NCBI GenBank assembly: GCA_964591955.1
Contig: CAZQBT010000003.1
Span: 28,890-92,889, forward strand
Length of the DNA stretch: 64,000 nucleotides
Direction of reading: 5' to 3'
Source: an uncultured Brevinematales bacterium
GTDB lineage: Bacteria > Spirochaetota > Brevinematia > Brevinematales > CAZQBT01
Within the stretch, counting starts at the first letter, position 1, and every line of letters starts with the position of its first letter. The notes under the pieces are model-generated. The model saw nothing but the letters and a program-made list of their open reading frames with translations. It had not been told where the DNA came from and made no database searches. This document shows positions 3,522 through 42,687 of the stretch, piece after piece. Made by a program: the position numbers and the translations under genes.

Positions 3522-4643
3522 ATGATGAAAACTACAAGTATAACGCTTGAAGCAATAGAAAAGGGATGGAACACCCTTCGCGGGAAAGTTACCGCGCTGA
3601 AAAAAATTGATTTGCATATAGAAAAAGGGGAGTTTTTTGTCCTGTTGGGACCATCGGGATGCGGAAAAAGCACATTGCTGAACCTTATAGCCGGGCTTGA
3701 GAAGCCCACATCGGGCAAGATAGTTTTCGGCGAACGAACGGTCGCCTCGCCAAGCGATAAGATTATGCTTGCGCCGTTTGAACGCGACGTTGCGATGGTT
3801 TTCCAGAGTTACGCTCTCTATCCGCATATGACTATTGAGGATAACCTGATTTTTCCTCTGACAAACCTTAAACCCAGACCCAAAAAGTCTGAAATGAAAA
3901 AGAAGGCGCATGATGCGGCAAAACTTCTTCAGATAGAAAATCTTTTGGACAGGAAACCCTCCGAACTCTCCGGCGGGCAACGTCAACGCGTGGCAATCGG
4001 GCGCGCCATAGTCCGCGACCCGGAAATTTTCCTTATGGATGAGCCGTTGTCCAACCTCGATGCAAAACTTCGCGGGGATATGCGCGCACAGTTAAAGGGT
4101 CTCCAGCAAAAACTCGGCGTTACGACTGTCTATGTAACCCACGACCAGCTTGAGGCGATGACTCTCGGCGACCGTATCGCTGTCCTTAACGACGGGTATG
4201 TCCAGCAGCTCGGAACTCCTATGGACGTGTTCAACAAGCCTACAAACGTGTTTGTAGCAAGGTTTATCGGTTCTCCTACAATGAATATCTTTGAAGGCGA
4301 TATAGGTATCAAGGACGGGGTTCCTGTTTTGGATTCCCCGTCGGTAACGGTATTTCTCCCGCCGGAAATATCCGAAAAATTCCACAAGGCAGGCGGAACT
4401 CATTTTACAATCGGCGTGCGTCCCGAACATTTCGATATCCTTCCCAAGGGCGAGGGGGATATTGAGGTTAAGGTTGACGTTGTCGAGCATATCGGCACGG
4501 AGCATCTCTTGTATGTCTTTCTGCCCGACGGAAACCAGATTGTGATTAAAACTACCGAAATGCCGGACGGCGACGAGTTTTCGCTGGGGATAATCCCGGA
4601 GAAAGCCCATCTCTTTGACGAAATGGGGTTCAGGTTAGGATAG
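3522..4643 (+). CDS. Sugar ABC transporter ATP-binding protein (MalK-like)
   Basis: Walker A GPSGCGKST, signature LSGGQRQRVA, Walker B FLMDEP, C-terminal GVRPEH TOBE region. Confidence 0.93.
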   Translation: MMKTTSITLEAIEKGWNTLRGKVTALKKIDLHIEKGEFFVLLGPSGCGKSTLLNLIAGLEKPTSGKIVFGERTVASPSDKIMLAPFERDVAMVFQSYALYPHMTIEDNLIFPLTNLKPRPKKSEMKKKAHDAAKLLQIENLLDRKPSELSGGQRQRVAIGRAIVRDPEIFLMDEPLSNLDAKLRGDMRAQLKGLQQKLGVTTVYVTHDQLEAMTLGDRIAVLNDGYVQQLGTPMDVFNKPTNVFVARFIGSPTMNIFEGDIGIKDGVPVLDSPSVTVFLPPEISEKFHKAGGTHFTIGVRPEHFDILPKGEGDIEVKVDVVEHIGTEHLLYVFLPDGNQIVIKTTEMPDGDEFSLGIIPEKAHLFDEMGFRLG

Positions 4644-4780
4644 GGGAAAAGGGGGTAGGTTGACTATGACTATATTTTTCCCCGAATATCTGCCGGAGAA
4701 ATTAAATAAACTACACGCTTGCAGATAGCGAAGGTATTAAAAAACTATTTCGCTTTTTCGGCATCATAATCAAAAAAGAC

Positions 4781-36253: not shown

Positions 36254-36285
36254 AAAAAAGGGTATCGTTAAACGATACCCTTTTT
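36254..36285. terminator. Bidirectional rho-independent terminator
   Basis: AAAAAAGGGTATCGTT-a-AACGATACCCTTTTT between convergent genes. Confidence 0.9.
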
Positions 36286-36305
36286 CTATATCGGCATAGG
36301 AGGTC

Positions 36306-37805
36306 TTATCTTCTTCTGACGCTTCTGTAAACCAAGAACCCTTCGCGAACAATCATAAATGTAAATGCGCGGGCATTTTTATTTCTATCGGCAAATCTTT
36401 GTATATCGTCTATGTTGCGTATGGTTTCGCCGTTTACGCCGACAACGATTTCTCCTCTTCGCAATACTCCCGCAAAAATCGAACCGCGTTCAACGTTAGC
36501 AACGACAACCCCATATTCCGCGCCGTGTCTTTGCAGATATTGAGAGGACGGGGCTTCAAAGGTCGCACCGTGAAATTCAACCGTTCCCGACGGTTTTTCC
36601 TCTTCAGGTTCTCTGTCGGGACGACGGTCTCTTGTCCACTCATCACCGACAGGTCTTCTTGTGAGAGTAACCTTTATTGTTTGTCTTCGGTTTTCGCGAA
36701 GTATCTCAATATTAACCTCGCTGCCGGGAGGCAGTTCCCCGATTTCTCTTTGGAGACGGTCGGGGCGGTTTACCGGAGTATTATTAACTTTAGTAATAAT
36801 ATCGCCCATCTTTAAACCTGATTTTTCGGCGGGGCTGTCCGGTTCCACTCTTGATATCAGAACTCCCTCGTTGTCGCGAAGCCGAAATGTTTCACGCGTT
36901 GTGGCATCAAGCTCGCCGGGAACTACGCCGAGATACCCCCGCACTACCCTTCCCGTTTCAACTATCTGGAAAGCCACGTTTTTAGCCGTTTCAATCGGAA
37001 CTGCAAAACTGATACCCATATACCCGCCCGTTCGTGAGTGGATAGCCGTGTTAATTCCTATAACCTGTCCGCGAATATTAACGAGAGGTCCTCCCGAATT
37101 TCCCGGGTTGACGGGGGTATCGGTTTGTATAAACTGCTGGAATCCCGATTGCATACCGGGACGTCCTATTGCGCTGACAGTTCCGAACGTGTAGGTGCCT
37201 GCAAGCCCGAACGGATTACCGATAGCTATAACCCAGTCTCCCACTTCGGATTCCGTAGCGTTGCCGAGCGCGGCGACGGGGAGATTTTCCCCCTCTATTT
37301 TGAGTATTGCAATATCGGTTTCGGGGTCTGTTCCGATAACCGTTGCATCAAATACCCTGTCATCGGAAAGCGTAACGGTTATTTTTGTTGCTTTATCTAC
37401 TACGTGATGGTTAGAAAAAAGATAGCCGTCGGTGGTAAATATAAATCCCGAACCGTGAGCCTGCATAGGTCTTTTTTGTTCCTCGCCCGGGTCGCCGAAA
37501 AATCTCCTGAAAAACGGGTCATCACGGAACATATCGGGAAACGGATTTTGCACCGCAACCTCGCTTTCTACGTTTATTGACACCACGGCGGGCATCACCG
37601 AACGGGCTATTTCCCGAAATACGTTTTGGATTTGTATTGCGGTTTGCAATCCGTCAATTTTTTCCACTTCAGGGTTTTCTGTCTTGAAATTCAAGGGACG
37701 GGTTTGCGAATAGGTATTATTACACGAACCCGATTGTAAGATTAAAAAAAGTCCTGCTATCGCAATCAGAATTGGCGCGTATCGAGTTTTGAGTACCATA
37801 TTCAT
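36306..37805 (-). CDS. degP: DegP/HtrA serine protease with two PDZ domains
   Basis: GSGFI, SNHHVV, DIAILK, NPGNSGGPL, RGYLGV PDZ. Confidence 0.9.
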   Translation of the reverse strand: MNMVLKTRYAPILIAIAGLFLILQSGSCNNTYSQTRPLNFKTENPEVEKIDGLQTAIQIQNVFREIARSVMPAVVSINVESEVAVQNPFPDMFRDDPFFRRFFGDPGEEQKRPMQAHGSGFIFTTDGYLFSNHHVVDKATKITVTLSDDRVFDATVIGTDPETDIAILKIEGENLPVAALGNATESEVGDWVIAIGNPFGLAGTYTFGTVSAIGRPGMQSGFQQFIQTDTPVNPGNSGGPLVNIRGQVIGINTAIHSRTGGYMGISFAVPIETAKNVAFQIVETGRVVRGYLGVVPGELDATTRETFRLRDNEGVLISRVEPDSPAEKSGLKMGDIITKVNNTPVNRPDRLQREIGELPPGSEVNIEILRENRRQTIKVTLTRRPVGDEWTRDRRPDREPEEEKPSGTVEFHGATFEAPSSQYLQRHGAEYGVVVANVERGSIFAGVLRRGEIVVGVNGETIRNIDDIQRFADRNKNARAFTFMIVREGFLVYRSVRRR

Positions 37806-37953
37806 TACCTCCTGAAAATGTTTCTATATACTGAATTTAATAAATTCATTTTTCAAAATCAAGTGTTGCGTTTATTCCATTAGATTTAAAAACGGGTTTT
37901 CGGGATAGATTTTTTTTAACTAACTTTGGCTTTGTGATATGAGGCTGAAGCAA

Positions 37954-38445
37954 TTACCCGTTTAAGCGCTTTTGAAATTCGGCGTTATTCAGCGCGCAAA
38001 TAGCCACGGCAAGCGCATCGGCGACATCATCGGGAGATGGAACTTCCTTTAGCGACAGGATAAGTTTAACCGCGGATTGTATTTGGGACTTGCCTGCCCT
38101 GCCATAGCCCGTAACCGAGGTTTTGACTTGGAGAGGCGCAAACTCACTGACGGGTTTTTGTTTTTTTTCGCAAAGGAGCAACAGGACGCCGCGCACCTCC
38201 GATACCGTAGTTGCGGTTTTGGTGTTTTTTGCGAAAATCAATGTTTCAAGCGCGACTATGTCGGGGTGGTATTTGTCGATGATTAGAGACATGTCGTCAT
38301 AAATCTGCGCGAGACGTTCCTGCTTGGAGAGTTCGGGGGCGGTGGAAATAAGCCCGTAGGATACGGGGATAATCTCGCTCTTTTTGGATTTAACTATTGC
38401 AAACCCCAGACGGTGGAGGCCTGGGTCTATTCCAAGCACGGTCAT
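37954..38445 (-). CDS. ruvC: Holliday junction resolvase RuvC
   Basis: VLGIDPG..GFA, E-T-L-I-F, VTGYGRA.K.Q, DDVADALAVA. Confidence 0.95.
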   Translation of the reverse strand: MTVLGIDPGLHRLGFAIVKSKKSEIIPVSYGLISTAPELSKQERLAQIYDDMSLIIDKYHPDIVALETLIFAKNTKTATTVSEVRGVLLLLCEKKQKPVSEFAPLQVKTSVTGYGRAGKSQIQSAVKLILSLKEVPSPDDVADALAVAICALNNAEFQKRLNG

Positions 38446-38455
38446 TTTAACCCCT
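38439..38455. repeat. 17-bp direct repeat, left boundary of the MTase-nuclease cassette
   Basis: CGGTCATTTTAACCCCT, identical to 40359-40375. Confidence 0.85.
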
Positions 38456-39125
38456 CTTGTATTTTCCTTTCTGCAAGAATTAATACGGTTTCTTCGGTCG
38501 AATAAAGGCGTTTATTGTCGGCATTAAATTCATATTTAACATCAACCGATAAATTTTCTAATGAGATAATTTTAAAGCCGGCACATTTATAAATATGGTC
38601 ATTGCCTTGCTCGCCCGCTACAAATATTTCATAAGACAGGAGTAGGTGAGGAGCGTTATGGGTTATTTTAAAATCATCGGATGGAGAAAAATAAAAACTT
38701 CGGAAAGTTGTGTCGATATTTTCTTTGTTGTAAGTCTTGCACTCCAAATAATATGGGTTTTTATTATACCAAAACAGGATATCTGGGTATCCGGTTGATT
38801 TTTTTTTGCCTGAATTTGTGGTTGGCGTATCTGCGGATAATCCCAACCCGCTTAAAGCCTGTTTTATAAACGGTTCTATGGCATATCCGACTTCGTTTGC
38901 TCGCGGTCGAAATATGCCGTTTTTGTTTATTTCTTTACCGGCTTCGGTTGCCGCATTTATTAGTATGTTCAAAAGTTTTTTGTTATGGCTTATTTTTATA
39001 TTAAAAGGCAGAATTTTTTTACCGCTCATAGCTTCAATAACTAATTTAAAGGGAATATCTTTTATAGGTCTAAGCATTTGCTTTATGACGTTTTCCAAAT
39101 TATTGATATAATCGTCTTTTTCCAA
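38442..39125 (-). CDS. Putative type II restriction endonuclease (PD-(D/E)xK fold)
   Basis: NEVG...GYPDI....YLECK catalytic pattern; directly downstream of a DNA methyltransferase; AT-richer than its neighbours by eye. Confidence 0.7.
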   Translation of the reverse strand: MEKDDYINNLENVIKQMLRPIKDIPFKLVIEAMSGKKILPFNIKISHNKKLLNILINAATEAGKEINKNGIFRPRANEVGYAIEPFIKQALSGLGLSADTPTTNSGKKKSTGYPDILFWYNKNPYYLECKTYNKENIDTTFRSFYFSPSDDFKITHNAPHLLLSYEIFVAGEQGNDHIYKCAGFKIISLENLSVDVKYEFNADNKRLYSTEETVLILAERKIQEGLK

Positions 39126-39126
39126 A

Positions 39127-40365
39127 TTAAGCCCCCTTTCTGAAAAGAATTATTCTATTGGTATTAGTGCCTTTGCTGTTATTGTTTACTCCCCAGATAT
39201 TGGAAGTCTTGGTGAAAGTTTGGGAGTTTATCAAGACCGCAACGCATTCAAAACCTGCGTTAATCCCCGATGGAATTACCGAATTTTCAAGTTTAATCGT
39301 TCCGTTTCTCACCTCCCCTACCTCAAAAGCAACCCATCCGCCCGGCTTTGTAATCCTGTAAAGCTCGCGGAAAACATCATCCGTAAAGGTTTGCCAGCTT
39401 TCAAGATTTTTACATATAGTAATATTCTTACTTATGTTTTCGGTGTTGACATTATTAAACCAACATCGAAGCCAGTTGTCTGTCGAATAATCCACTACGT
39501 CAAGGAAAGGCGGAGAAGTTACCGTAAGCTGGACAATATTGTCCGGGATTTCTTTGGTTTGACGGGCATCCTTGCAAAGAAATATTCCGGTTTCTCCTGA
39601 ATATCTAAGGTTGTCGATATCGCTCTGACTAAGATTTCTTATAAGCGATTTGCTTTTATTAATGACGACTTCCTTTAAATTACGGTATTCGGGAGCTTGG
39701 TTGCGGGTTTTATTAATCTTAATCTGGCGTTCCGGTGTTACTGCCTGATTAGGGGGAAGCGTATAAACCGAGAGGAACCCCTTTGAATGCCCCGTCAGCC
39801 GATTTGTAGCGACCATTCTAATCCACGTATCAATACGGTCGTTCTCCCGATTAATTAAATAATTTCGTAATGATACTATTTCCGCTTCCGTTTTGTGATG
39901 GTAAAACATTGAAAGGTCAATATCAGCTTTAGCGTCTTTATCAAATCGGATATCGTCAAGTCTTTGTTCTATGTCTTGAATTGATGGAACAAAGAAACGC
40001 GGTTTTAAAAGTATTTCACTAAGGGGGTTAATATCATTGGAAATTATATTTCTTCCAAGCAAACCGGCTTCCAAAAGAGCCGTTCCCCTGCCGGCAAACG
40101 GGTCATAAACCATATCACGCTTGTGAGTAAGCAATTTGATAAAGAAATTAGGCAGTTGGGATTTAAAACAAGCCCTGTAAGATATTTCATGGATACTCGC
40201 GCCTTGCCTTTGCTTTGAAGTCCAAAGCTCATTAACAATCAAAGGTATTTCATTATTGCCGAAAGTAATATACTCAATATCTTGCGACCTGATAGCAAAT
40301 AAGGAATTTTCGAAAGAAAATCCGTTGAAGTAATCAATCAAATCGGTATTATTCAAACCGGTCAT
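39127..40365 (-). CDS. DNA amino-methyltransferase (likely N4-cytosine; motif I before motif IV)
   Basis: SAM motif YDPFAGRGT, then catalytic VTSPPF (SPPY-like), plus ELYRITKPGG. Confidence 0.85.
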   Translation of the reverse strand: MTGLNNTDLIDYFNGFSFENSLFAIRSQDIEYITFGNNEIPLIVNELWTSKQRQGASIHEISYRACFKSQLPNFFIKLLTHKRDMVYDPFAGRGTALLEAGLLGRNIISNDINPLSEILLKPRFFVPSIQDIEQRLDDIRFDKDAKADIDLSMFYHHKTEAEIVSLRNYLINRENDRIDTWIRMVATNRLTGHSKGFLSVYTLPPNQAVTPERQIKINKTRNQAPEYRNLKEVVINKSKSLIRNLSQSDIDNLRYSGETGIFLCKDARQTKEIPDNIVQLTVTSPPFLDVVDYSTDNWLRCWFNNVNTENISKNITICKNLESWQTFTDDVFRELYRITKPGGWVAFEVGEVRNGTIKLENSVIPSGINAGFECVAVLINSQTFTKTSNIWGVNNNSKGTNTNRIILFRKGA

Positions 40366-40375
40366 TTTAACCCCT
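40359..40375. repeat. 17-bp direct repeat, right boundary of the MTase-nuclease cassette
   Basis: CGGTCATTTTAACCCCT, identical to 38439-38455. Confidence 0.85.
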
Positions 40376-41534
40376 GTATGGCGGTGTTTTCGACAATAAA
40401 ATGCGCGACCTTGTCTTTGATTTCGTTTTTCAGTTCCAAAGTTTTCCCGTCTTTGGAGATAACCGTAATGCTGTTTGTATCCGAGCCGAGAGGAGAAAAG
40501 TCATTGCTGATTTCGTTAAGCACAATAAAATCCAGACCTTTATCCTTAAGTTTTTTTTGCGCGTTGGATAAGCCGTTATCGGTTTCAAGCGCAAACCCGA
40601 CAAGGGTTTTATCCTTGAATTTAGAACGGACTTCTTTAAGTATATCTGGGTTTTGCGTAAGATTAACGGTAATCTCGCTATCCGTTTTTTTAATTTTGGA
40701 CTTGGAGATATCCTTTGCACGGAAATCCGCCGGCGCTGCCGCCATATAAACCCCGTCATAGTCGGCAAGATTTTTCAATATTGCGTTCATCATCTCCCGC
40801 GTGTCCGATACTCTGATGGATTTTATATAAGACGGAATACCGATATTCACGAACCCGCAGATTAATAAAACATCCGCGCCGTAATAAAAAAGCGTGCGAG
40901 CAATGGCTATCCCCATCTTTCCGCTTGAGAAATTGGAGATATAACGGACGGGGTCGATTTTTTCCAATGTAGCGCCCGCGCTTACTATATAGCGTTGCCC
41001 TTTCAGGGGCTTGTCGGGGTCTTTGTCGATAATGCCCGCAATATATTCCTCATCGGGAAGCCTTCCCTTCCCCGAATACCCGCAGGCAAGGTCGCCCATT
41101 GACGGTTCATAAACCTCAAACCCGTAATGAAGTAGTTTGCGGATATTATCCTGAGTGATACGGTTTTCATACATCTTGACATTCATTGCGGGAAAAATGA
41201 CTCGACGTTTATCAAAAGCCAGCATAGCAGAGGTCAGAAGGTTGTCGCCGATTCCGTTGGCGATTTTGGCTATGGTATTTGCGCTAGCCGGGGCAATAAC
41301 AAAGACATCCGCCCAATCGGGAGTTTGAATATGAGCAAGCGGCGCGGATATGTCAAAATCCTGCGTATAAACCTCATCGGCACAGATTGTTTTAAAAAGT
41401 ATCGGGTTAATAAATTTAGTCGCGCTTTCGGTCATTATTACCCTGACCGAATGCTCCTGTTTTTTTAGTATCCTTATGATGTTTAAAGTTTTGTAGATTG
41501 ATATACCGCCGGTAACCCCGAAAAGTATATTCAT
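40362..41534 (-). CDS. coaBC: Phosphopantothenoylcysteine decarboxylase/synthase
   Basis: GVTGGISIYK, APASAN, PAMNVKMY, IDPVRYISNFSSGKMG, VGFALET. Confidence 0.95.
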   Translation of the reverse strand: MNILFGVTGGISIYKTLNIIRILKKQEHSVRVIMTESATKFINPILFKTICADEVYTQDFDISAPLAHIQTPDWADVFVIAPASANTIAKIANGIGDNLLTSAMLAFDKRRVIFPAMNVKMYENRITQDNIRKLLHYGFEVYEPSMGDLACGYSGKGRLPDEEYIAGIIDKDPDKPLKGQRYIVSAGATLEKIDPVRYISNFSSGKMGIAIARTLFYYGADVLLICGFVNIGIPSYIKSIRVSDTREMMNAILKNLADYDGVYMAAAPADFRAKDISKSKIKKTDSEITVNLTQNPDILKEVRSKFKDKTLVGFALETDNGLSNAQKKLKDKGLDFIVLNEISNDFSPLGSDTNSITVISKDGKTLELKNEIKDKVAHFIVENTAIQGLK

Positions 41535-41535
41535 T

Positions 41536-42687
41536 TTATGCCTCGGTTAATTTTTTTAATTTTTTCCATCTTATAAGAACAAAATGCGCGTTGTCTTTTA
41601 TGAGGATGCTGTAAATATCGCCGGAAGGGTCAATGAAATGACGGGTGGATGGGTAAAACTCGGCAATATTCGGAGCGTAATGGAATTCCTCGCGTATCTG
41701 GGCATCGGATATATTAATAAATCGGAAACGTATTGCGTTATTTCTATCATCGTAGGAATACAGGACTATTTCATCATCGCGCGTGATGGCAAGCATCCCG
41801 TCTATATTCTGTTTTGAATTGAATATATTTTTAGTTATGGCGTTTTGAAGAATACTGTAAACGTTAAGCGAGTTGTAATAATCCGTGGGGGTTTCGATTT
41901 TTTTTCCGTCGTCTTCAATCAGGTAATAATTCATATAGAAAAGCATTCGCTCATCGTTTTTCAGGTTATAAACATCGCTAATCTGTCCGGCATAGGTTTT
42001 GTTTCCCGTTTGATTTGTCATTGATATATATTTGGTATTAAAGCTGAAATTCATTTCGCCGGATGTGGAAAACCTGTTTACCTGCCATTTCAGATAATCA
42101 TCCGAGTAGTCTCTGTGATAAACGTATAGATTATCAAAAAGGTCAATATCAATCCTGTCGGGATATTCCATAGGAGCGCTGTTAATCCCGTTTACTCCCA
42201 ATCGGTAAATAAACTTTCCTTCAAAAGAGAATTTATAAATATAATATTGCTCGTAATTTGTCGGGTCGCTGTTGGTGCTTTCGGAAGCTAAAACAAAGAT
42301 TTCGCCGTATTTGTTCAGAGCAACCTGAAAAGGTATCCCGAACTCGTAATCCGCGCTCTTATTCGGAATAATCATATTGGTTATGGGATTCATCGAGAGA
42401 TTAAAAACCGAGATTCGGCGGTTGTATTTATCGGCGATATAGAGCTTGTTCCTGAAAATCTGGAAACTGTCGGGTATATCTATATAGCTTTCAAACAGAT
42501 AAGATTCATCCTCATTCATAGTCATTTTTAAAAGAGGAAGGTTGCTGCCGACCTCATTAAGTTCCTCGCCCAAAGTTGTGTGAAAAACAGTCTCAAACTC
42601 CATCATACGGGGTTTCGGTGAACAAGCCCCGATAACGGCAACGGTTATCACTACAAGAAATTTTATAACGGATTTTTTTTGAAACAT
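41536..42687 (-). CDS. Lipoprotein with NHL-like/beta-propeller character
   Basis: Lipobox IGAC; LYIADKYNRRISVF, IYKFSFEGKFIYRLG, PDRIDIDLFDNLYV; resembles a conserved spirochaete lipoprotein family (from memory). Confidence 0.7.
   Translation of the reverse strand: MFQKKSVIKFLVVITVAVIGACSPKPRMMEFETVFHTTLGEELNEVGSNLPLLKMTMNEDESYLFESYIDIPDSFQIFRNKLYIADKYNRRISVFNLSMNPITNMIIPNKSADYEFGIPFQVALNKYGEIFVLASESTNSDPTNYEQYYIYKFSFEGKFIYRLGVNGINSAPMEYPDRIDIDLFDNLYVYHRDYSDDYLKWQVNRFSTSGEMNFSFNTKYISMTNQTGNKTYAGQISDVYNLKNDERMLFYMNYYLIEDDGKKIETPTDYYNSLNVYSILQNAITKNIFNSKQNIDGMLAITRDDEIVLYSYDDRNNAIRFRFINISDAQIREEFHYAPNIAEFYPSTRHFIDPSGDIYSILIKDNAHFVLIRWKKLKKLTEA

Follow-up and report, generated by a model that had tools for sequence, protein, structure and literature searches.

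A predicted restriction-modification gene pair inserted into the coaBC-ruvC junction of an uncultured Brevinematales bacterium between two copies of a 17-bp stop/start module

We analyzed a stretch of 64,000 nucleotides (nt), hereafter the window, from an uncultured Brevinematales bacterium (GenBank assembly GCA_964591955.1, contig CAZQBT010000003.1, positions 28,890 to 92,889 of the forward strand). Between coaBC and ruvC, two housekeeping genes whose stop and start codons overlap in most of the relatives examined, the window carries a predicted Type II restriction-modification (R-M) gene pair, a methyltransferase (MTase) gene followed by a restriction endonuclease (REase) gene. The pair is bracketed by a 17-bp direct repeat that holds a stop codon, a Shine-Dalgarno (SD)-like run and a start codon. 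In our judgment the pair was quite likely inserted into the coaBC/ruvC overlap without the help of a recombinase, with duplication of about 17 bp of the target, and would be expressed from the host operon by translational coupling. All positions given below are those of the window unless a locus is named.

Geometry of the cassette and its repeat

An exact search placed the 17-mer CGGTCATTTTAACCCCT at 38439-38455 and 40359-40375, with the copies 1920 bp apart and bracketing the MTase and nuclease genes, just as a preliminary description of this DNA had it. On the minus strand, which is the coding strand here, the repeat reads AGGGGTTAAAATGACCG. The features concerned are the following.

40362..41534, minus strand: coaBC (phosphopantothenoylcysteine synthetase/decarboxylase), resident upstream gene; Pfam DFP 1.7e-60, Flavoprotein 8.1e-35
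40359..40375, minus strand: upstream repeat copy; last codons and TGA stop of coaBC, SD-like run AGGGG, ATG-ACC-G start of the MTase gene (ATGA overlap)
39127..40365, minus strand: predicted Type II MTase, 412 amino acids (aa); Pfam PF01555, PADLOC MTase_II
38456..40358, minus strand: inserted DNA between the repeat copies, 1,903 bp, starting at MTase codon 3 and ending with the final native codon of the REase gene; not in any relative examined
38442..39125, minus strand: predicted Type II REase, 227 aa, TTG start; PF27324 homologues, PADLOC REase_II
38439..38455, minus strand: downstream repeat copy; REase tail (E)GLK and TGA stop, SD-like run AGGGG, ATG-ACC-G start of ruvC (ATGA overlap)
37954..38445, minus strand: ruvC (Holliday-junction resolvase), resident downstream gene; Pfam RuvC 7.6e-43

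Stop and start overlap as ATGA at both copies, with AGGGG lying 5 nt ahead of the ATG. CoaBC ends in ..IQGLK* and the REase in ..IQEGLK*; both TGA stops overlap an ATG, sharing three bases with the one that opens the MTase (MTG..) or RuvC (MTV..). The sequence thereby confirms the earlier proposal that the repeat supplies GLK* to both CoaBC and the nuclease as well as the ribosome-binding site (RBS) and ATG-ACC of both the MTase and RuvC. The inserted DNA carries no untranslated flanks of its own, and at its internal joint the TAA stop of the MTase gene is followed by a single base and the TTG start of the REase gene, with AAGGGGG ahead.

The repeat is sharply delimited, the next 60 nt of the flanks matching at only 15% and 32%. 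Judged by eye and without statistics, ATAC aligns ahead of the two copies only with an indel of 3 nt, which would extend the repeat to 21 nt at most, and similarity past ATGACCG is weak. There is no third copy in the window at up to 2 mismatches (shuffles expect 0.01) and no further one in the whole assembly (2,699,972 bases, 120 contigs) at up to 1 mismatch. An unfiltered genome-wide repeat scan was swamped by paralogues and repeat elements, and we therefore used a filtered list, which holds 119 isolated exact direct-repeat pairs of at least 15 nt at 0.4-8 kb spacing, 38 of them at least 17 nt long and 13 exactly 17 nt; the same scan of a shuffled genome yields 22 15-mer pairs. Because the genome holds many such isolated pairs, a bare 17-nt repeat is not unique. 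Chance does not explain why each copy falls on a stop/start overlap and the two exactly bracket a two-gene cassette that all the relatives examined lack.

The junction in relatives, the origin of the repeat and the identity of the cargo

The comparison set consisted of order-level relatives, not of members of the same family, genus or species. Protein searches of 35 order genomes detected coaBC in 21 relatives, and ruvC was found on the same contig and strand, at most 35 nt past the coaBC alignment, in every one of the 21. The gene order formed by coaBC, ruvC and a conserved 383-aa gene upstream of coaBC was free of cargo in 17/17 relatives' loci having both genes. Similarly, ruvC directly follows coaBC without cargo in 6/6 metagenome contigs whose CoaBC is at least 52% identical, and 46 more distant metagenome CoaBC contigs have no ruvC at that place. 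None of these 21 genomes and 6 contigs has cargo at the coaBC-ruvC junction, only the window's genome does, and the view that the cassette was inserted into a coupled junction is borne out by the uninterrupted state of the site in all of them. Out of 23 relatives' junctions, 17 share a 4-nt NTGA overlap, 1 overlaps by 1 nt, the genes abut in 2, and in 3 they are 1-8 nt apart. Since the junction is conserved as an overlap across relatives, translational coupling of coaBC and ruvC appears to be ancestral. The expectation of an empty site with a single copy of the 17-mer held in part. The uninterrupted junction is there, and the best single copy, in the order-level relative G031 (..LAGLK* overlapping MTVLG..), is identical at 13 of the 17 bases. 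A degenerate pattern of the 17-mer plus ruvC start gave 0 empty-site matches in metagenome contigs, and no CoaBC relative closer than 57% identity was found among them.

Two side observations concern coaBC itself. In family f6 (G005, G010, G014, G018 and others; 1.4-2.3 Mb) 12/12 genomes have no coaBC match and 11/12 have ruvC, which may reflect loss of coenzyme A biosynthesis in a lineage with reduced genomes. At L015 (G017:C17), in a genome that is 73% complete, the coaBC match falls into two pieces (residues 1-242 and 272-381), which may be due to a frameshift or an assembly error.

The protein ends point to the host as the source of the repeat. In all 14 aligned REase homologues the chain goes on for just one to three residues past an invariant Ile and has no EGLK tail; the window's REase runs on past this Ile through EGLK, codons that the repeat supplies. 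Because the homologues have no such tail, the REase seems to have lost its own stop and borrowed a copy of the coaBC stop. At the other end, MTase homologues begin M-(S/T)-L-N.. and the window's MTase begins M-T-G-L-N, and on this alignment its start codon is a copy of the ruvC start. With both cassette ends fused into codons supplied by the repeat, the foreign DNA would be ORF-precise (open reading frame, ORF) and 1,903 bp long. That the repeat is duplicated target sequence is thus well supported by the G031 junction and the protein alignments.

The cargo itself is, as predicted from its sequence, a Type II R-M pair composed of a separate MTase and an adjacent PD-(D/E)XK endonuclease. The MTase matches Pfam PF01555 (E 1.3e-16) and, over nearly its whole length, PADLOC MTase_II PDLC03325 (E 5.8e-143). 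Its motif I (DPFAGRGT, of the form DPFxGRGT, residues 88-95) and motif IV (SPPF, 284-287) are invariant in 16 aligned sequences, and its sequence matches in the PDB, which cover motif I only, are N4-cytosine MTases; the enzyme would probably methylate N4 of cytosine or N6 of adenine. Motif I, C-terminal in the PF01555 profile and M.PvuII, stands near the N-terminus in this protein, and the reversed motif order marks it as a circularly permuted form. Among plasmids, the MTase matched only generic 'DNA methyltransferase' entries and no named homologue. The REase has 1161 homologues with a precomputed PF27324 label, matches PADLOC REase_II PDLC03511 (E 6.8e-43) and shows a PD...ExK core (P114 D115 ... 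E128 C129 K130) that is invariant in 15 sequences. We found no match to it among PDB sequences or plasmids, no relative in viral contigs and no REase model in the Pfam and NCBIfam profile sets searched. Its AlphaFold (AF2) model (pLDDT 70.8, pTM 0.73) gave SfiI, BglI, EcoRV, HincII and SwaI as best Foldseek matches with template-modelling (TM) scores of only ~0.4, weakly suggesting a fold nearest to the EcoRV-branch enzymes.

For both proteins the best homologues other than the proteins themselves reach 63-66% identity and are scattered over many bacterial phyla and archaea, as is common for R-M genes that move horizontally, and we therefore read the cargo as horizontally acquired. GC content is 39.5% in the MTase gene, 34.4% in the REase gene, 43.7% in coaBC, 50.2% in ruvC and 41.4% in the genome, with the REase gene at the 5th and the neighboring ruvC at the 99th percentile among genome ORFs. 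As a further observation on this family, a conserved ATGGCGACAC-type start lies a few bases past the nuclease stop at loci L076, L077, L078, L092, L111, L119, L123, L125 and L131. The usual cassette would thus seem to have a conserved third member, a small gene or element, which is not in the window's cassette.

Insertion, expression and competing explanations

In the course of events that we favor, a promoterless Type II R-M pair, MTase then REase, would have been acquired horizontally, and the incoming DNA would have been joined illegitimately at a staggered or re-copied target, the ..GLK*/ATG joint, with duplication of some 17 bp comprising the SD-like AGGGG, the coaBC stop and the ruvC start. 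After such an insertion coaBC would retain its own end and the MTase would start on the copied ruvC start codon, translationally coupled to coaBC. The REase would read four extra codons into the copied coaBC tail and stop there, and ruvC, placed after the REase, would still use its original coupled start. Transcription of the cassette would most likely come from the host operon promoter and translation from coupling; an MTase placed first and a weak TTG on the REase would give an order that favors protection before restriction. Selection probably retained this rare outcome with four intact frames and the coupling module.

The surroundings of the cassette are compatible with such borrowed expression. 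Outside coaBC and ruvC the same strand carries three further features.

41536..42687, minus strand: conserved gene upstream of coaBC in the same tight array, 383 aa, with its end 2 nt ahead of the coaBC start; match to the LIC_12708 family weak, under the curated cut-off
36306-37805, minus strand: htrA, 148 nt after ruvC
36254..36286, minus strand: terminator-like hairpin after htrA, 15 pairs and a T run; consensus scan only

The hairpin is the only strong terminator-like one in the region and likely marks the 3' end of a transcription unit that includes the cassette. It is also the exception in promoter and terminator scans that otherwise did not rise above shuffles, the promoter scan being uninformative (28 sites vs 24 +/- 5 in shuffles). 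With the genes packed too tightly to fit a promoter between them and the one strong hairpin following htrA, the earlier description of the cassette as 'non-polar' and as one that 'borrows expression' from the host operon is plausible.

The same preliminary description held that the cassette is reversibly excisable. The 17-mer would then be an att-like or short-homology site at which a single crossover integrates a circle with one copy and from which the circle can excise. The direct repeats do have the right orientation and bracket the cassette exactly, deletion between them would regenerate a junction like that of G031, and the sections of Furuta et al. 2010 (PMC2853133) drawn on here set out a hypothetical release life cycle for repeat-flanked R-M units, stated there to be without experimental support. 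However, no integrase, transposase or other recombinase is encoded among the ORFs at 28-51 kb, that is within ~10 kb of the cassette, as had been noted before, and the 17-mer occurs nowhere else in the genome. The absence of EGLK from 14/14 REase homologues also makes the repeat a host target and not part of a travelling element. A length of 17 bp makes a poor substrate for homologous recombination, shorter than RecA usually needs to recombine efficiently, and cells that lose a Type II R-M system are expected to be selected against through post-segregational killing. The stretch is contained in 18 sludge-metagenome runs, in all of them as assembled contigs, which drop rare variants; no RNA run is listed as containing it. 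Contigs of runs X10, X13, X14 and X16 show the occupied form without differences, as low-depth fragments, and contain no deletion allele, joint or circle, a weak argument given that rare alleles would escape contigs. The lower word shares of these four runs are due to fragmentary assembly and not to an empty-site allele; X10 record 5 stops at 40364, three of these runs have no coverage in the bin 40366-40579, and no contig bridging the coaBC/MTase repeat copy is among the matches listed for them. Reversible excision is therefore not supported, and we regard integration and release through the 17-mer as improbable.

Flanking direct repeats of the target are also a hallmark of transposition, and a non-autonomous, transposon-like insertion served by a transposase in trans would leave a target-site duplication as well. 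If microhomology is discounted, the duplication shrinks to ~8-10 nt, a size typical of transposition, and R-M units with inverted repeats and 8-bp duplications are described in the available part of Furuta et al. 2010 (PMC2853133). Yet there are no inverted repeats at the cassette ends (38456 and 40358), both limits of the foreign DNA fall within coding sequence and show no element ends, conserved termini are missing from the cassette's other copies, and the ORFs at 28-51 kb include no transposase gene. The 17 bases exceed the under-10 bp given as typical of DNA transposons in that part of Furuta et al. 2010 (PMC2853133). We consider transposition very unlikely. We give equally little credence to arrival of the cassette by homologous recombination of coaBC/ruvC flanks from a relative that already carried it, the duplication having arisen elsewhere. 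The comparison set holds no close relatives, which leaves room for such a donor, but none of the 21 order genomes and 6 contigs has cargo at the junction, and the idea only shifts the original event to another lineage. Least probable of all is a chance repeat or an assembly artefact, which we hardly credit. In its favor speak the 38 isolated pairs counted above and the nature of the genome, a metagenome bin of 120 contigs; against it, both copies lie exactly on stop/start overlaps and leave four reading frames intact. As for an artefact, runs not flagged as source bridge the REase/ruvC copy without differences (X10 record 2, 37556-39041; X14 record 19, 38199-38504), and five runs contain all sampled 31-mers of the 4.1-kb stretch.

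Several points weigh against insertion with a 17-bp target duplication and borrowed expression, the reading we prefer. Part of the 17-mer may be native to the cassette, with ATGAC.. and AG serving as microhomology at the joints: an MT start is also seen in 5/15 MTase homologues, and ..AG may have been the original end of the REase. In that case the target duplicated in the strict sense might measure no more than ~8-10 nt. The comparison reached no closer than order-level relatives, the nearest empty sites being only ~55-59% identical at the protein level, and both the sequence of the site before insertion and the date of the event are therefore inferred. All 18 runs represent the same strain as assembled contigs. 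An internal promoter in the cassette is conceivable given a promoter scan at shuffle level. The exact duplication of 17 bp falls short of the >30 bp that defines the published class of long target duplications discussed below, and for that class the insertion mechanism has, according to the portion of Furuta et al. 2010 (PMC2853133) used here, never been shown experimentally, double-strand breakage having been suggested. Finally, at 36/37 other loci of the nuclease family, windows of +/-60 nt at the MTase start and REase stop hold no repeat beyond the control range, and so duplicating the target is not inherent in the cassette family.

Other repeat-flanked cassettes and known R-M insertions

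The one exception among the 37 loci, L136 from Endomicrobiia, closely parallels the window's cassette. An MTase gene, a 151-aa ORF and a broken nuclease gene, split into two frames, lie between psd and pssA. The repeat (650-670 / 2873-2893; 15 nt exact, 20 of 21 nt) covers the ATGA overlap and the first pssA codons, and the duplicated start opens an ORF of 13 codons whose TGA overlaps the MTase ATG. In relatives of L136, psd and pssA are neighbors at 14/15 loci, and the closest one (PssA 85%, Psd 82% identical) has an uninterrupted psd-pssA pair with a single copy of the start region. Windows wider than +/-60 nt revealed longer flanking repeats at three other loci, namely 132 nt at 93% in L078 (1-132 / 2259-2390, touching the contig end), ~300 nt at 88% in L084 (~117-552 / 4019-4455) and 35 nt at 91% in L099 (2885-2919 / 4651-4685). 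These repeats fit the published class of long target duplications.

The window's own genome yielded further cases. A second R-M pair (G000:C31:4999-7085, L141 1500-3586), composed of a 326-aa nuclease that is weakly DpnII/BanI-like and a 322-aa PF01555 MTase following it, is bracketed by an exact 35-nt direct repeat. This repeat includes a -10-like TATAAT box and an AAGGAGG SD sequence, and its copies precede the nuclease ATG and the polA GTG. An empty site is not demonstrable by synteny at this locus, polA and der not being neighbors in relatives. Two two-gene cassettes with other cargo were also found. One (G000:C8:14702-16653, L139) encodes an HD/dGTPase-like protein and a weakly DarG-like 172-aa protein, with an exact 31-nt repeat over the stop of a CheA-like kinase gene; the other (G000:C10:7139-8683, L143) encodes a SocA/Panacea-domain protein and an unknown 242-aa protein, with an exact 25-nt repeat over the stop of a pyridoxal phosphate (PLP) decarboxylase gene. 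Two candidates were rejected as insertions, the repeat pair on C79, which consists of TPR paralogues, and C60:12151-14640 (G000, L142), where a 44-nt palindrome-like repeated hairpin element lies on both sides of metX-metW.

Insertions of this kind are already in print, and in view of the precedents in the consulted part of Furuta et al. 2010 (PMC2853133) the phenomenon is less new than the preliminary description implied. That part describes R-M genes that have no mobility genes with them and lie between direct repeats, of which the empty site has one copy; the repeats often span a translation start or stop, the target genes being left intact. It includes one Type II R-M system in an operon-like structure and one gene fusion by insertion. 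The class is defined there by R and M homologues, a size of <20 kb, freedom from mobility genes and a duplication of >30 bp. The window's cassette is like it in being an R-M pair without a mobility gene, flanked by direct repeats that span a start and a stop. It has both R and M homologues and a 1,903-bp insert without mobility genes, and its repeat aligns to a single copy at the empty junctions of relatives; these are relatives at the order level, unlike the strains of one species compared for the class. Nothing marks it as a site-specific or transposable element, with no recombinase, transposase or terminal inverted repeats. Unlike the insertions described in that part of Furuta et al., the duplication is only 17 bp here and consists of a complete SD-stop-start overlap module, and both cassette ends are fused in frame with no untranslated DNA of their own. 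As the >30-bp length is not reached, we file the case as a short-duplication, double in-frame-fusion variant that works like the class. What is new is limited to this seamless variant and its recurrence, the kind itself having been published. Nobusato et al. 2000 is reportedly a further source on R-M insertion with long target duplication.

Other systems offer partial parallels. The Type II SsuDAT1I R-M system of Streptococcus suis (Sekizaki et al. 2001, J Bacteriol 183:500, as cited in the part of Furuta et al. 2010, PMC2853133, used here, as the previous case of entry into an operon-like structure) likewise lies between housekeeping genes of a single cluster without mobile-element genes. Integron cassettes and other promoterless cassettes likewise depend on upstream expression signals of the host or platform. 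Unlike integron cassettes, the window's pair has no integrase, attC or attI; its site is a host stop/start overlap and its repeat is host sequence.

The practical importance of the finding is modest. It is an unusually clean case in nature of how an essential operon can take up a selfish or defensive R-M pair without polar effects. Copying one 17-base module leaves four frames intact, and the cassette could do without its own promoter, RBS, MTase start or REase stop. The case adds short duplications, and fusion in frame at either end, to the range of Kobayashi-type insertion with target duplication, and the parallel cases provide concrete substrates for testing the still unexplained insertion route. 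Together, three independent cases, coaBC/ruvC, the polA RBS in the same genome and psd/pssA in Endomicrobiia, prompt a tentative suggestion, to which we attach rather low probability, that overlapping stop/start joints and RBS regions of housekeeping genes are recurrent landing pads for promoterless defence cassettes by way of a specific joining route. If this were true, joining would proceed by, for example, microhomology at ATGAC-type starts rather than through selection on random events; each insertion would copy the SD-stop-start module, the operon would heal, precise loss might now and then occur through the short repeats, and the cassette would be expressed by coupling without any DNA outside its ORFs.

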